This document shows, piece by piece, positions 1,745 to 5,954 of a stretch of 14,154 nt of DNA (positions are counted from its first letter, which is position 1; each line of letters starts with the position of its first letter). The stretch is taken from IMG/VR virus record IMGVR_UViG_2695420403_000006, positions 1 to 14,154 of that record; one strand, given 5' to 3'. The notes under the pieces were generated by a model, which worked only from the letters and a program-made list of their open reading frames with translations, made no database searches and was not told the DNA's origin. Source of the stretch: a virus (taxonomy: Duplodnaviria > Heunggongvirae > Uroviricota > Caudoviricetes). Position numbers and translations under genes: made by a program.

Positions 1745-1761
1745 TTTGGTGGAGAAAGTTG

Positions 1762-2124
1762 ATGCGTGATATTCAGATGGTTCTGGAGCGTTGGGGAGCA
1801 TGGGCGGCGAGTGATAGTTCTGGAGTAGACTATTCGCCTATAGCTGCTGGGTTTAAGGGGCTTCTTCCCTACACAAGCAAAACACGTCAGGCTTGTTCAG
1901 ATAGTGATGCATTAATTATTGAAGGTTGTCTTGCTCTTCTTAAAAAGCGAAAACCGTACGAGCATTCTTTGATTGTGGCCCATTACCTGTATGGTATCTC
2001 GAAAAGAAAGCTTGCAAGAGCTCGCAAAAAAGATGAGAAATTGATACGTATAGAGATACAGATGGCTGAAGGGTTTATTGATGGATGCCTTTCAATGCTG
2101 GATGTTAAACTTGAAATGGAGTAG
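1762..2124 (+). CDS. Late-gene antitermination protein Q, small QuuD-like type
   Basis: ATG at 1762 preceded by GGAG at 1751-1754 (the ORF track begins at TTG 1759). The ~120-aa product MRDIQMVLERWGAWAA... matches the N-terminus of DLP12-type small Q antiterminators as I remember them. Position immediately upstream of the lysis region is canonical for Q. Confidence 0.75.
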   Translation: MRDIQMVLERWGAWAASDSSGVDYSPIAAGFKGLLPYTSKTRQACSDSDALIIEGCLALLKKRKPYEHSLIVAHYLYGISKRKLARARKKDEKLIRIEIQMAEGFIDGCLSMLDVKLEME

Positions 2125-2149
2125 AAAAAAGGGCATTTCTGCCCTTTTT
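2125..2149. terminator. Bidirectional rho-independent terminator between convergent Q and the minus-strand cassette
   Basis: AAAAAA-GGGCA-TTTC-TGCCC-TTTTT: 5-bp GC-rich stem (2131-2135/2140-2144), 4-nt loop, A-run upstream and T-run downstream, so it works on both strands. The T-run overlaps the TAA stop (complement of 2148-2150) of the minus-strand membrane-protein gene. Confidence 0.7.
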
Positions 2150-2591
2150 AAATGTGGGGGAGTATCCAGTTTACTTTTCTCCATGTAAAGGCAAAAGTTA
2201 TTACTGAAATGATAAGAAGAGATAAAGATTCGATAATTAAAATAAATTCTATTTTTTCTCCATGTAACAATGTCTTTTCATTGGCAAACATTGCTATCAA
2301 AGCAATAACGCATGCCGTAATTAAAGATGCACCTGCGGTTAATAGATTTACAATAATAACTTGAAGTATGTTGTTGTTTTTTAATGCTTTTATTATTCCA
2401 TTTGAGTTTTCGCTGGCAGCACTAAAAATTGATATTGTGGCTAAAATAAAACCAAATAAAATACCGGATACAGTTGAAATAACCCCGGAGGCTGTAAGTA
2501 TGTCAGCATGCCCCATCTGAGGGATATACCTCAGTAGGAACAAGGTGCAAAAAACACTTACAATCAGGTTTCTTAAGTATTTCAATAACAT
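2148..2591 (-). CDS. Small polytopic inner-membrane protein (about 4 TM helices), RexB-like candidate effector of a two-gene exclusion module
   Basis: 147-aa ORF with four long hydrophobic segments (about residues 9-23, 31-60, 75-103, 114-137). Start lies 3 nt downstream of the stop of the upstream minus-strand gene, with a GAAGG RBS inside that gene's 3' end. AT-rich codon usage distinct from the backbone. Size, topology and the motif LLRYIP resemble lambda RexB as I remember it. Confidence 0.6.
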   Translation of the reverse strand: MLLKYLRNLIVSVFCTLFLLRYIPQMGHADILTASGVISTVSGILFGFILATISIFSAASENSNGIIKALKNNNILQVIIVNLLTAGASLITACVIALIAMFANEKTLLHGEKIEFILIIESLSLLIISVITFAFTWRKVNWILPHI

Positions 2592-2594
2592 ATC

Positions 2595-3536
2595 CTATAC
2601 CTTCTTTTTGCTGATATCGTATTGCTTAAGGTATTCATTGTTATCAATTTTAGCAGAAATCATGGCTTGCAGAACATCACTATCAGTGCCATAACCATTA
2701 ACGGTATATATGTTTTTTTCTGAAATGAGTACCTGATCAAGAAGACTTTGTTCAACGGTATTTTTGGGCTGTGTTACTGCCGCTTTTTTTACAATTCCCG
2801 GCATTTTTTCAAGGAGTTCTTTAATACCATCCTTAACGAGATCTGATAAATAACCTTTGACTTTTACTCTCCCTGATGCACGTCCCCTTAGATTTAACTT
2901 GAGACGTGTTCCACCCAGCCCTACCATCATATTTACCAGTTCCTTAGAAAATGAACTATTTAGCTGGTAATTTGTTGCATCAAAGTTCCTGGGAGCAGCC
3001 AGGACAATATCACAACTTCTCAAAGTACTTCCTGTTTCAAGTAGCTCTTTGACGCTCTCTTTTTTCCAGATGGCTTGGAATGAAAAGTTATTTCCAGGAT
3101 TACCACTCTGGCTGTAAAGCAGATAAGCTAAATCCGATTCTTTCGGCCCAAGATGATTTTGAGTTAATATTAAAATATCACTATCGTAATAATATAAAAA
3201 ATAGGTTCTTTCGACTATGTATTTTTTATCATCTAGTGGTATGTTGTGCTCATTCCAGTGTTCATCACCAATATAAGGAAGGAGATACTCTTCTCGTGAG
3301 CATGACATGTAGCCGAAGAAATATTTAGCTTTTGTATCTTTATTTATAAAAGCTATTTTTAACTTTTTATTTCTATAGATGGTATCAAAATGATTATTCG
3401 TAACGGTTACGCAAGTATTATACAGATTTTCAATTGCTTGCTTAGCAACTGAATGGCTGCGGATAGTCCCAGAACTGCTGGTGTAAAAACCAATTTTAAG
3501 TTTTTTTTGTTTCTTTGATTGCGCAATAGTAGCCAT
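2595..3536 (-). CDS. Soluble 313-aa protein, RexA-like candidate sensor/activator of a two-gene exclusion module
   Basis: ORF with AAGG RBS 6 nt upstream of the ATG (complement of 3534-3536); no hydrophobic segments; AT-rich. N-terminal KIGFY and internal LGPKESDLAYLL are reminiscent of lambda RexA (GFY..., FGPTTSDLTDFL) as I remember it. Operonic with the downstream membrane protein gene. Confidence 0.55.
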   Translation of the reverse strand: MATIAQSKKQKKLKIGFYTSSSGTIRSHSVAKQAIENLYNTCVTVTNNHFDTIYRNKKLKIAFINKDTKAKYFFGYMSCSREEYLLPYIGDEHWNEHNIPLDDKKYIVERTYFLYYYDSDILILTQNHLGPKESDLAYLLYSQSGNPGNNFSFQAIWKKESVKELLETGSTLRSCDIVLAAPRNFDATNYQLNSSFSKELVNMMVGLGGTRLKLNLRGRASGRVKVKGYLSDLVKDGIKELLEKMPGIVKKAAVTQPKNTVEQSLLDQVLISEKNIYTVNGYGTDSDVLQAMISAKIDNNEYLKQYDISKKKV

Positions 3537-3668
3537 GTTAAACCTTAGTATACTAATAATTTCTTATGGGGCTTATTTTTTATATGGCTTTAATTTAGCA
3601 AAAAAAATTACCGCGGTCCGCAAATTTTATCTTAATCTGTTAAGAGTGGTTACTTCGCCACACAGCTT
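3537..3668. promoter_or_regulatory. AT-rich intergenic control region: expected promoter for the minus-strand cassette and expected Q-dependent late promoter/qut for the + strand lysis operon
   Basis: Inferred from gene arrangement. Possible -10-like hexamers are TATACT (3551-3556, either strand) and CTTAAT (3631-3636, +) with a TTACCG -35-like element 17 nt upstream, but none is strong. No transcript data. Confidence 0.3.
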
Positions 3669-3700
3669 AAACCCGCCGTCGAGCGGGTTTTGTCGTTTCT
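3669..3700 (+). terminator. Rho-independent terminator resembling lambda tR' (late-promoter-proximal terminator)
   Basis: ACCCGC (3671-3676), 6-nt loop CGTCGA, GCGGGT (3683-3688), followed by TTTTGTCGTTTCT. Stem sequence and position upstream of the holin match my memory of lambda tR' (ACCCGCCGAAGCGGGTTTTT). Confidence 0.55.
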
Positions 3701-3841: not shown

Positions 3842-4168
3842 ATGCCTCATAACCCAAATACCTGGCTGGAGTTGGTCCAGAGCTGGTGGCGTGGAGACAC
3901 ACCGCTGGGCGCAGTGATTATGTCGATTGTTATGGCTGGTTTACGTATTGCCTATTTTGGCGGTGGTGGCGGCTGGAAGCGAAAAACACTCGAAATTCTA
4001 CTCTGTGGCGCTCTGACGCTGACTTTTGCATCCGCTCTTGAGTATGTCGGATGGCCTAAATCACTATCTGTTGCCATTGGTGGTGGGGTGGGGCTGATCG
4101 GTGTTGATGCTATTCGTGGGGCTGCAATGAGAGTAATCGGTAATAAGTTTGGTGGCTCTAAGGAGTAA
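3842..4168 (+). CDS. Holin (class I-like, three predicted TM helices, charged C-terminus)
   Basis: 108-aa ORF immediately upstream of the endolysin gene (3-nt gap). Three hydrophobic segments and a basic C-terminal tail (RGAAMRVIGNKFGGSKE). Position is canonical for S. Confidence 0.7.
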   Translation: MPHNPNTWLELVQSWWRGDTPLGAVIMSIVMAGLRIAYFGGGGGWKRKTLEILLCGALTLTFASALEYVGWPKSLSVAIGGGVGLIGVDAIRGAAMRVIGNKFGGSKE

Positions 4169-4171
4169 TTT

Positions 4172-4648
4172 ATGCAGGTACTAAATTCCCAGCGTAAAGC
4201 TTTCCTCGATATGGTGGCATGGTCAGAAGGAACGGATAACGGGCGACAACCGACACGTAATCACGGTTATGATGTTATTGTTGGCGGCGAACTGTTTACT
4301 GATTACTCTGATCACCCTCGCAAACTTGTCACGCTAAACCCCAAACTCAAATCAACAGCCGCCGGACGTTATCAGCTTCTTTCACGCTGGTGGGATGCCT
4401 ACCGTAAGCAGCTTGCTCTGAAAAACTTCTCCCCCAAAAGCCAGGACGCTGTGGCACTGCAACAGATTAAAGAGCGTGGCGCTTTACCGATGATTGATCG
4501 CGGTGATATTCGTCAGGCTATCGACCGTTGCAGCAATATCTGGGCGTCGTTACCCGGTGCAGGTTACGGTCAGTATGAACATAAAATCGGTGATTTGATT
4601 GCCCGGTTTAAAGAGGCTGGTGGGGTGGTAAATGAAGCTGAGCTATAA
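4172..4648 (+). CDS. R: Endolysin, lambda R-type lytic transglycosylase
   Basis: 158-aa product shares long identical runs with lambda R as I remember it (QRKAFLDM.AWSEGTDNGRQ.TRNHGYDVIVGGELFTDYSDHPRKLVTLNPKLKST.AGRYQLLSRWWDAYRKQL...ALQQIKERGALPMIDRGDIRQAIDRCSNIWASLPGAGYGQ), including the catalytic Glu in the AWSEG context. Confidence 0.92.
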   Translation: MQVLNSQRKAFLDMVAWSEGTDNGRQPTRNHGYDVIVGGELFTDYSDHPRKLVTLNPKLKSTAAGRYQLLSRWWDAYRKQLALKNFSPKSQDAVALQQIKERGALPMIDRGDIRQAIDRCSNIWASLPGAGYGQYEHKIGDLIARFKEAGGVVNEAEL

Positions 4649-5024
4649 GCTGGTTATCGCTGGTTTCTTCGTTACTGTCATTGGTTCTTTCATCTGGTCG
4701 GCCAACCACTACTACAGCAAATATCAGTACGAAAAGAAACGTGCTGATGAGGCTGTACGAAATGCTGAATCAGCAACTGCCATTACCAATAACGTCCTGC
4801 AATCAATACAAATCGTAAATACAGTTCTGGAGGCTAACCAGCATGCAAAACAGCAGATCGCACTGGAGTCACAGAGAACCCAGGAAGATATCAAAGTGGC
4901 TGTTGAGAATGATGATTGCGCTTCCCGTCTTGTTCCTGCTCGTGCAACTGAGCGGCTGCGCCGGTACGCGGACAATTTACGTGCCAGTTCCGGCGGTACC
5001 ACTACCGGCGAACCTGACCGCTGA
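4632..5024 (+). CDS. Rz: Rz-type i-spanin (inner-membrane spanin subunit)
   Basis: 130-aa ORF overlapping the endolysin stop. N-terminal TM anchor (LVIAGFFVTVIGSFIW) followed by a charged, coiled-coil-like periplasmic domain. Canonical position after R. Confidence 0.75.
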   Translation: MKLSYKLVIAGFFVTVIGSFIWSANHYYSKYQYEKKRADEAVRNAESATAITNNVLQSIQIVNTVLEANQHAKQQIALESQRTQEDIKVAVENDDCASRLVPARATERLRRYADNLRASSGGTTTGEPDR

Positions 5025-5166
5025 AACCCCACAGCCAGCTATTCCTGATCCGCTGACTTACAGAGATAGTCTGGATTTAAACGTGAGCCTGCTGTCAGTG
5101 CTGGCTGCCTGTAATAGGGATAAGGCTGATATTCGTAAAATTGAAGCAGAGAAGAGTGAGCCATGA
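4909..5166 (+). CDS. Rz1: Rz1-type o-spanin (outer-membrane lipoprotein), overlapping the 3' end of Rz in the +1 frame
   Basis: Start chosen at the ATG-ATG pair at 4909 within the track ORF 4843..5166. Product begins MMIALPVLFLLVQLSG-C with a lipobox (LSGC) and a Pro-rich mature region. It extends 142 nt beyond the Rz stop, i.e. overlapped rather than fully embedded. Confidence 0.7.
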   Translation: MMIALPVLFLLVQLSGCAGTRTIYVPVPAVPLPANLTAETPQPAIPDPLTYRDSLDLNVSLLSVLAACNRDKADIRKIEAEKSEP

Positions 5167-5360: not shown

Positions 5361-5954
5361 ATGACGGACTATACTTTTTTTTACTGGATAGAGATGCTTC
5401 TTAAAGAAGGCAATGTTTTATTTATTGTTCTTGCTTGTTTGATTGTCTTTTTTACTTTAAAAAAAGAAATAATAATGGTTTTAGGTCGTCTTAATACAGT
5501 TAAGCTAGGTGACTATGAGATTAAATTTAAAAAAGAAATGTTTGAAATAGAATCTAAAAGTATAGAGGTTATTAAAAATTTACCTGGAACAAATCTTGTC
5601 CTGCCGACACAACTCATTGAGAATTTCAATATTTTTGAGAGTCTTGCTAGTACTCAGCCTAATGTTGCTGTACTTTCAGCTTGGCGCGAATTGGAGTTAA
5701 CCGCTATAACGCTTGCATCTAAAAAGGGGATTGAGATCAACGGGACATCTTTAGGGCGGGCTTCAGGTATCGCTGCCTTGAAAAATGTCCAATCTGCAAA
5801 CAAAATTTCTAGTGACATTGTTAAGCTTTATGAAAAAACAGGAGAGTCTATTAAGCCTATATCCCAAGGAAAGCTCTTATGTACTCAGGAAGATGCTTTG
5901 GCATTCTGTAAGAATGCAAAAAGACTTAGCAATTATTTAACATCCATATTTTAG
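5361..5954 (+). CDS. Hypothetical membrane-anchored cargo protein (N-terminal TM helix plus about 150-aa soluble domain), function unknown
   Basis: 197-aa ORF in a strongly AT-rich island at the bor-equivalent position between spanins and packaging genes. Hydrophobic segment VLFIVLACLIVFFTL near the N-terminus. Weak RBS; start could alternatively be the in-frame ATG at 5394. Confidence 0.6.
   Translation: MTDYTFFYWIEMLLKEGNVLFIVLACLIVFFTLKKEIIMVLGRLNTVKLGDYEIKFKKEMFEIESKSIEVIKNLPGTNLVLPTQLIENFNIFESLASTQPNVAVLSAWRELELTAITLASKKGIEINGTSLGRASGIAALKNVQSANKISSDIVKLYEKTGESIKPISQGKLLCTQEDALAFCKNAKRLSNYLTSIF

Follow-up and report, generated by a model that had tools for sequence, protein, structure and literature searches.

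Two adjacent AT-rich genes on the minus strand of a viral genome fragment, here called A and B, probably, although far from certainly, make up a two-gene exclusion (abortive-infection) cassette of the RexAB type, carried as a 'moron' with a putative terminator of its own between the antiterminator gene Q and the presumed late promoter of a lambdoid prophage. The pair is a previously unrecognised relative of lambda RexA/RexB. Since neither protein matches the Pfam RexA/RexB or the PADLOC models, we regard it as a known kind of system represented by a new sequence family, DUF6731 plus phrog_8552. Protein sizes and the range of relatives suggest that this family is separate from Pseudomonas putida RexABpp and Vibrio cholerae Sucellos. 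By analogy with characterized systems, the cassette would most likely stop other phages by damaging the membrane of the infected cell. A first-pass annotation of the same DNA had proposed that gene B encodes the RexB-like membrane component of a candidate abortive-infection system. This proposal is supported by the controlled alignment to RexB, by the predicted RexA/RdgC fold of the partner, by the constancy of the pairing and by the gene order in Pseudomonas phage AUS531phi.

Genomic context and insertion site

The stretch of DNA analysed, referred to as the window, is 14,154 nucleotides long and represents a lambdoid prophage's late region. Its relevant features are as follows.

106-747: KilA-N gene
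749-1744: DUF968/HNH gene
1759-2124, plus strand: antiterminator Q gene (Pfam Phage_antitermQ, E 1.5e-52), convergent with the cassette; left insertion boundary
2125-2149, no strand given: symmetrical hairpin, from RNA folding and sequence
2148-2591, minus strand: gene B, 147 aa, predicted four-helix inner-membrane protein, phrog_8552; proposed effector
2592-2597, minus strand: A-B junction, read from the sequence
2595-3536, minus strand: gene A, 313 aa, Pfam DUF6731, phrog_7651; predicted RexA/RdgC fold, probably cytoplasmic; proposed sensor and activator
3537-3596, minus strand: AT-rich, cassette-specific region upstream of A, from the sequence
3597-3690, plus strand: block common to phages with the same Q type, from conservation; terminator-like hairpin at 3669-3690
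3842-4168: holin S
4172-4648: 158-aa ORF in the lysozyme position
following the 158-aa ORF: Rz/Rz1-like ORFs
5361-5954, plus strand: AT-rich ORF, 197 aa

For the ORFs past 5361-5954, both their order and their relatives at related loci fit an HNH endonuclease, terminase, portal, protease and capsid, and the phage possesses a complete S/R/Rz lysis set. At 33-35% GC, A and B differ in composition from Q (43%) and from the neighbouring structural and lysis genes (about 49-56%).

Where does the cassette begin and end? On the left, it is convergent with Q, an arrangement with the same type of Q that recurs in 77 of 88 related loci. On the right, the sequence at 3537-3596 varies with the cassette allele, and the adjoining block is conserved: positions 3597-3690 are kept across loci whose A genes are just 43-88% identical, and lambdoid phages without the cassette, SfII and SfIV among them, match these positions as well. 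We infer that 3597-3690 comprises the Q-dependent late promoter, a Q-utilisation (qut) site and tR'; the cassette would accordingly be an insertion between Q and the target of Q, with its right boundary at the block. At its end (3669-3690), the block has a GC-rich hairpin and, behind this, a tract rich in T. The Rex-like cassette thus stands back-to-back with the presumed late promoter block, and the promoter of the cassette and the late promoter may overlap or interfere.

Upstream of A, a ribosome-binding site (AAGG, 3546-3543) is accompanied by the candidate promoter elements TATACT (3552-3547) and TTGCTA (3601-3596). A consensus scan found no strong minus-strand promoter upstream of A, and a short TA-ACTAAGG element near the ribosome-binding site is all that the aligned upstream regions have in common. 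At the other end of the cassette, directly past B and 1 nt past the stop codon of Q, lies the hairpin AAAAAGGGCA-GAAA-TGCCCUUUUUU (2125-2149), whose stem is flanked by A and U tracts. Its predicted RNA fold has a free energy of -13.4 kcal/mol (z -4.45), and none of 200 shuffled sequences was equally stable. Judged by these features, the hairpin is the putative intrinsic terminator of the cassette, probably a bidirectional one.

Gene B encodes a predicted four-helix membrane protein

Gene B is an ORF of 147 codons with an ATG start on the minus strand (2148-2591). Klebsiella, Citrobacter and Atlantibacter possess full-length homologues with 63-72% identity; by this distribution over several enterobacterial genera, the gene can therefore be taken as genuine and conserved. 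The four hydrophobic helices with short loops that the first-pass annotation had read from the sequence are borne out both by hydropathy, with four peaks centred at about residues 10-18, 40-52, 83-96 and 121-128 (Kyte-Doolittle, 19-residue windows), and by an AlphaFold2 model (mean pLDDT 87.7), in which long helices spanning residues 2-22, 28-62, 75-102 and 114-146 are joined by short loops. Basic residues are found at the N-terminus (K4, R7), in the central loop (K68, K71) and at the C-terminus (R138, K139), and because of this distribution an N-in/C-in topology fits best, as in lambda RexB. The model and the hydropathy profile identify B as a four-helix protein, predicted to reside in the inner membrane. 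It combines the features by which a RexB-like component is recognised, namely a length of about 140-180 aa, four transmembrane helices, cytoplasmic termini and a basic central loop, and it resembles lambda RexB (144 aa) in size, helix number and charge pattern.

In family alignments, the most conserved parts of B are the intramembrane SGILFGF-LA motif of helix 2 and the central cytoplasmic loop, which is the most conserved of its loops. B matches no Pfam, NCBIfam or PADLOC model and is covered only by phrog_8552, a family to which no function is assigned. With the threshold relaxed to an E value of 1, PADLOC-DB 2.0.0 returned no component match for A, B or the ORF at 5361-5954. Bestrophin-like Pfam matches in 3 of 23 relatives of B (E 0.017 or worse) were put down to noise, and weak Tmemb_14 and holin-family matches among some relatives were judged likewise.

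Sequence similarity between B and lambda RexB

The first-pass annotation had likened one segment of B to a stretch of lambda RexB. The string it gave is correct and corresponds to RexB residues 24-57, and it is exactly this segment that BLASTP aligns with B (15 of 49 residues identical; E 0.012 for the single comparison). To what extent does the resemblance hold at the level of families? Exhaustive HMMER searching of 1.84 billion representatives with the B family profile yielded 25 relatives, down to about 20% identity. In an hhalign-type profile-profile test, narrow alignments (Neff 1.5 and 2.3) produced no signal (probability 1.5%), and a RexB signal emerged only once distant relatives had joined the B alignment. 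The B family then aligns to the RexB profile with a score of 30.9 and an E value of 1.6e-4, at a probability of about 50%, which lies below the usual standard of 90-95%. The alignment pairs B residues 14-80 with RexB 20-85 and is thus confined to the N-terminal half. It begins in the last part of helix 1, takes in loop 1, where a His/Asp is shared, then helix 2 and the central loop, and reaches just into helix 3; within helix 2, the small residues stay in register.

A reversed RexB alignment scored 12.2 in the same procedure, and 120 column shuffles that keep local hydrophobicity averaged 13.3-13.7 (standard deviation 2.6-2.7) with a maximum of 21.4. When decoys were drawn from about 130 phage loci (2,466 six-frame ORFs) and searched with the B family HMM, RexB orthologues accounted for 14 of the 16 best non-family matches. 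Because the signal lies above the reversed, shuffled and decoy controls alike, the similarity exceeds what chance would produce for a hydrophobic protein. The first-pass annotation had been ready to abandon its proposal if B aligned with RexB no better than with random four-helix proteins; the alignment outperforms both the hydrophobicity-preserving shuffles and the phage decoys. Taken by itself, the Pseudomonas member of the B family is 32% identical to RexB over 41 columns, in unchanged register. The Pfam RexB model (PF15968, gathering score 27 bits) gave no match for the window protein at E values up to 1, and among 23 B-family members scanned it found a single distant match (E 0.032); lambda RexB scores 305 bits against this model. 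Overall, the profiles point to a relationship between B and RexB that is weak, and is probably real, reproducible and specific.

Gene A and its predicted RexA fold

The product of gene A matches Pfam DUF6731 (PF20505) with 41.4 bits against a cutoff of 27. Of the 22 A-family members scanned, 14 match this model, and RefSeq lists the product of A as 'DUF6731 family protein'; a search of the full-text literature for 'DUF6731' matched no paper. The AlphaFold2 model of A (pLDDT 80.9) starts with a beta-sheet domain, continues with a central beta-alpha domain and ends in a strand and helices. This plan matches that of RexA, in which the N- and C-terminal parts form a split globular domain around a central beta-alpha domain. 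A Foldseek search of the PDB with the model returned lambda RexA (8twq) as the top match (E 2.9e-7, probability 1.0), followed by RdgC (E 8e-5) and then CENP-N, a kinetochore protein of the CENP-N/CENP-L fold. RdgC and CENP-N are the structural relatives reported for RexA itself in the RexA structure paper (PMC11077077), such that the A model has the same structural relatives as those published for RexA. The TM-scores to RexA are low (0.36-0.40), which may be due to the closed conformation captured in the RexA crystal form (PMC11077077). On the strength of the model, we predict that A has the RexA/RdgC fold. By analogy with RexA, and with a pI of 9.25, A is probably cytoplasmic, dimeric and DNA-binding.

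At the sequence level, the similarity between A and RexA is borderline (E 0.003-0.1, with a probability of at most 10%) and involves a local 'GP...DL' element. With the distant partners added, hhalign aligned A and RexA over 107 co-linear columns (score 29.2, E 0.003), and the corresponding shuffle control gave 15.4 +/- 2.9 with a maximum of 24.6. A global hhalign of A against RexA failed to align the two, the Pfam RexA model (PF15969) matched none of the 22 A-family members, and a search of PDB sequences with the A-family profile did not retrieve 8TWQ. In phages vB_EcoS-733R5 (ON470608.1 30253-31191) and vB_EcoS-716R3 (ON470622.1 15461-16399), a homologue 87% identical to A carries the label 'portal (connector) protein', almost certainly a mis-annotation.

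A and B as a unit

In the window, B lies directly downstream of A in the same direction, at a distance of 3 nt. The stop codon of A (TAG, 2597-2595) is found 3 nt ahead of the ATG of B and inside the Shine-Dalgarno-like sequence TAGGA; this arrangement suggests that the two genes are probably translationally coupled. All 88 related loci show a co-directional relative of B immediately behind a relative of A, over a range of A identities of 39-100% and usually with a spacing of 2-28 nt; a genome scan with the A alignment yielded only 3 loci. Upstream of each of the four distant B relatives examined, which are about 24-28% identical to the window protein, lies a gene for a protein of some 300 aa that is homologous to A (hhalign E 3.9e-64); two of these partners are recorded as DUF6731. 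The best viral structural matches of A and of B stem from one and the same uncultured phage, ctylc9. The arrangement is that by which RexAB-type pairs are recognised, with a membrane gene directly 3' of a co-directional gene for a protein of RexA fold, the fold being predicted in our case.

Distribution

In the Cdt-I-converting phage cdtI, orf53/orf54 match the 1.6-kb stretch of A and B with 99.7% identity, and both are annotated as 'hypothetical'. Among 5,426 complete E. coli genomes, 25 contain the cassette, labelled as 'DUF6731 family protein' and 'hypothetical protein'. In one E. coli contig (L004, 1-3800), where A is 44% identical, the lysis-side flank consists of tail, protease and terminase fragments and a methylase, without holin and lysozyme, which suggests a rearranged or degraded prophage that has retained the cassette.

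In Pseudomonas phage AUS531phi (MN585195.1), cI, A and B follow each other on one strand. Its B homologue (L136, 4336-4782) is annotated with a GTG start, giving a protein of 118 aa with three hydrophobic segments; starting from an upstream ATG that overlaps the end of A, it would be 148 aa long, regain the first hydrophobic helix and reach the length typical of the family. The start given in the record is probably incorrect.

Further afield, the pair is present at a Vibrio chromosomal locus and in Vibrio phage 10N.286.54.F4_PE001 (PQ189356.1; L137, 1389-2896), where A and B are 38% and 32% identical and located beside an integrase. The latter is a 14.6-kb element classified in the Vinavirales, which are non-tailed; this kind of cassette is therefore not restricted to tailed phages. 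Three further distant pairs adjoin, respectively, a gene with a Shedu domain (SduA_C; L133, 2103-5554), an integrase and a CI-like repressor (L134, 2012-4946), and a Gp49/HTH_3 (HigBA-like) pair, here with transposases on either side (L135, 256-3850). These neighbourhoods are defence-island or mobile-element settings. The A-B pair is thus mobile, and its carriers include tailed prophages and chromosomal islands as well as the non-tailed Vibrio element.

Comparison with known Rex-like systems

RexAB is the oldest known abortive-infection system, and its mechanism is still unsolved. Like the cassette described here, lambda RexAB is prophage-borne and consists of two co-directional genes with a short gap. 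The first product is cytoplasmic and about 280-310 aa long, and the second, with about 145 aa, is a membrane protein of four helices; the faint sequence signal that B has in common with RexB falls on helices 1-2 and the central loop. The lambda order cI-rexA-rexB is mirrored by cI-A-B in AUS531phi. The window proteins, however, escape the Pfam models of lambda RexAB, A belonging instead to DUF6731. Whereas lambda rexAB resides in the immunity region behind cI and is expressed together with the repressor in the lysogen, the window cassette is found between Q and the presumed late promoter, and it differs further in being oriented opposite to its neighbours and in having its own putative terminator.

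According to a 2026 paper (PMC12894663), only five Rex-like systems have been described so far, in four of which the membrane protein is the effector. The validated actinobacteriophage systems, gp30/gp31 of mycobacteriophage Sbash and gp44/gp43 of Gordonia phage CarolAnn, pair a cytoplasmic with a four-helix membrane protein, as seen here. Validated experimentally as an analogue of RexB, the four-helix protein gp31 of Sbash works with gp30 in a defence system modelled on RexAB, and defence is lost when the central cytoplasmic loop of gp31 is mutated; in the window protein B, the corresponding central loop is the most conserved one. When viral structures were searched with the B model, a 165-aa Sbash protein ranked second (TM 0.55, probability 1.0, E 0.058). 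As Sbash gene 31 encodes 165 aa, the matched protein is almost certainly gp31, an identity that follows from length and organism only. All of the best 50 viral structural matches to B have E values above 0.001, and lambda RexB is absent from these 50. The Rex-like genes of Sbash are located away from the repressor, directly behind the lysis genes. Differences exist in the hosts, which are actinobacteria for Sbash and CarolAnn, and in the larger size of gp30-type proteins (372 aa); gp30/gp31 have no sequence similarity to window A/B.

P. putida RexABpp (PP_5643/PP_5644), which exhibits B-dependent toxicity and membrane damage, and V. cholerae Sucellos (SclA/SclB), of which both genes are needed, are classed as RexAB-type by fold or HHpred. 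Both were thus recognised without Pfam models, following the same logic as applied to the window cassette. RexBpp is longer than window B, with mutations described up to residue 181, and RexApp-His has a mass of 37.5 kDa. No protein from a V. cholerae pandemic strain is among the relatives of A or B, and the clusters of distant B relatives contain none from V. cholerae N16961. Size and relatives, rather than direct sequence comparison, suggest that RexABpp and Sucellos are separate from the window family; for Sucellos, judged in the same indirect manner, this is probable. RdgC, a recombination-associated protein to which A is related by predicted fold, is a stand-alone DNA-binding ring without a membrane partner, whereas A is always followed by B; RdgC-like phage proteins also appear in the viral fold search with A.

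Discussion

How could the two proteins exclude a phage? Modelled on lambda RexAB, Sbash gp30/gp31 and P. putida RexABpp, a lysogen would make both A and B. B would rest inactive in the inner membrane, and A would serve as a cytoplasmic sensor, probably dimeric and DNA-binding. Infection by another phage would activate A, which might then engage B at its conserved cytoplasmic loop, the one that joins helices 2 and 3 (residues ~61-74). In response, B would depolarise or permeabilise the membrane, the ATP level would drop, growth would stop and the infection would be aborted.

Other explanations for the pair have to be weighed against this scenario. B could be a generic small membrane protein that has converged on the topology of RexB and works by another mechanism, such as a Sie/Imm-like block of DNA entry or a toxin-antitoxin-like addiction module. 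Such convergence would accord with the weakness of the RexB signal (a probability of about 50%, with no Pfam match), with the commonness of four-helix bundles, with structural matches of B that all have E values above 0.001, and with the locus at which the pair adjoins a HigBA-like pair and transposases. However, the signal surpasses hydrophobicity-preserving shuffles and real phage decoys, the cI-A-B synteny of AUS531phi parallels lambda, and A maps independently to the RexA fold, which a chance match of B would leave unexplained; we consider convergence unlikely. The roles of the two proteins could also be reversed as in gp30/gp31 of mycobacteriophage Butters, with A as the toxic or antiviral effector and B anchoring and sequestering it until infection. 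The architecture would be the same, and inversion is documented among Rex-like systems (PMC12894663), although the membrane protein is the effector in four of the five systems described. The strict coupling of A and B would suit an effector and its neutraliser equally well, but the conservation of B in the SGILFGF-LA motif of helix 2 and in the cytoplasmic loop suggests more than a passive anchor, and a reversal seems to us less probable again than convergence.

RexB has been reported in the older literature to protect proteins from ClpP proteolysis, and the cassette could serve mainly the life cycle of the prophage, with A biasing the switch between lysogeny and lysis and B shielding phage proteins from ClpP. 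The cassette abuts the presumed late-promoter region, and lambda RexA acts on the bistable switch independently of RexB (PMC11077077). The pair is nevertheless also present outside prophages, in the Vibrio chromosomal locus and beside Shedu, where switch functions are implausible, and its strict co-conservation favours a joint function; defence is compatible with a role in the life cycle. As the main function, such a role ranks below a reversal of roles in our estimate. Finally, the position of B by the lysis genes, not far from the holin gene (3842-4168), and a weak Pfam holin match of one distant B member (E 0.006) could suggest a lysis-timing protein of the holin or antiholin kind. This is very improbable: B itself matches no holin family, its gene is not part of the late operon but runs against it on the other strand, upstream of the presumed late promoter, and the phage already has its complete S/R/Rz set. 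B is moreover constantly paired with a 300-aa protein of predicted RexA fold and occurs in non-phage loci.

Starting from the preferred reading of A and B as a RexAB-type exclusion cassette, a more far-reaching proposal can be formulated, which we regard as doubtful and offer tentatively. DUF6731 and its four-helix partner might represent a large, unrecognised branch of a Rex superfamily, built from an RdgC-fold sensor and a four-helix transmembrane effector, spread throughout the Gammaproteobacteria and endowed with its own trigger specificity, and in enterobacterial lambdoid phages fixed back-to-back with the Q-dependent late promoter. If this were true, the branch would circulate among tailed prophages, Autolykiviridae-like non-tailed Vibrio elements, defence islands and transposon-flanked loci, and the back-to-back arrangement could couple expression or activity of the cassette to late transcription of the prophage.

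What would the assignment to the Rex systems imply? By analogy, it would give a function to genes that are annotated as 'hypothetical' or mis-annotated in cdtI, in the 25 of 5,426 E. coli genomes and in many other Gammaproteobacteria. The diverse sequences added here reveal positions that hold across families, namely the face of helix 2 that carries small residues, the central loop and, in the sensor, the 'GP...DL' element. They widen the comparative basis for the old, unsolved Rex mechanism, with an architecture that a specialist would expect and a function proposed by analogy. In Stx phages, the interval between Q and the late promoter is occupied by the Shiga-toxin genes; in lambdoid prophages, this interval also houses putative defence cargo.

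Further observations in the late region

Two more ORFs of the window deserve mention. The plus-strand ORF at 5361-5954, which follows Rz/Rz1 and precedes the ORF at the HNH/terminase position, has a GC content of 33.8% and a hydrophobic N-terminal segment. Its sole match is phrog_30030, a family of unknown function, with none in Pfam, NCBIfam or PADLOC. It looks like another add-on gene and is possibly a further candidate for exclusion or defence. At 4843-5166 (plus strand), an ORF in a different frame overlaps the end of Rz, extends beyond the Rz stop codon and contains a lipobox-like LSGC motif; it appears to be an ordinary overlapping Rz1 o-spanin.
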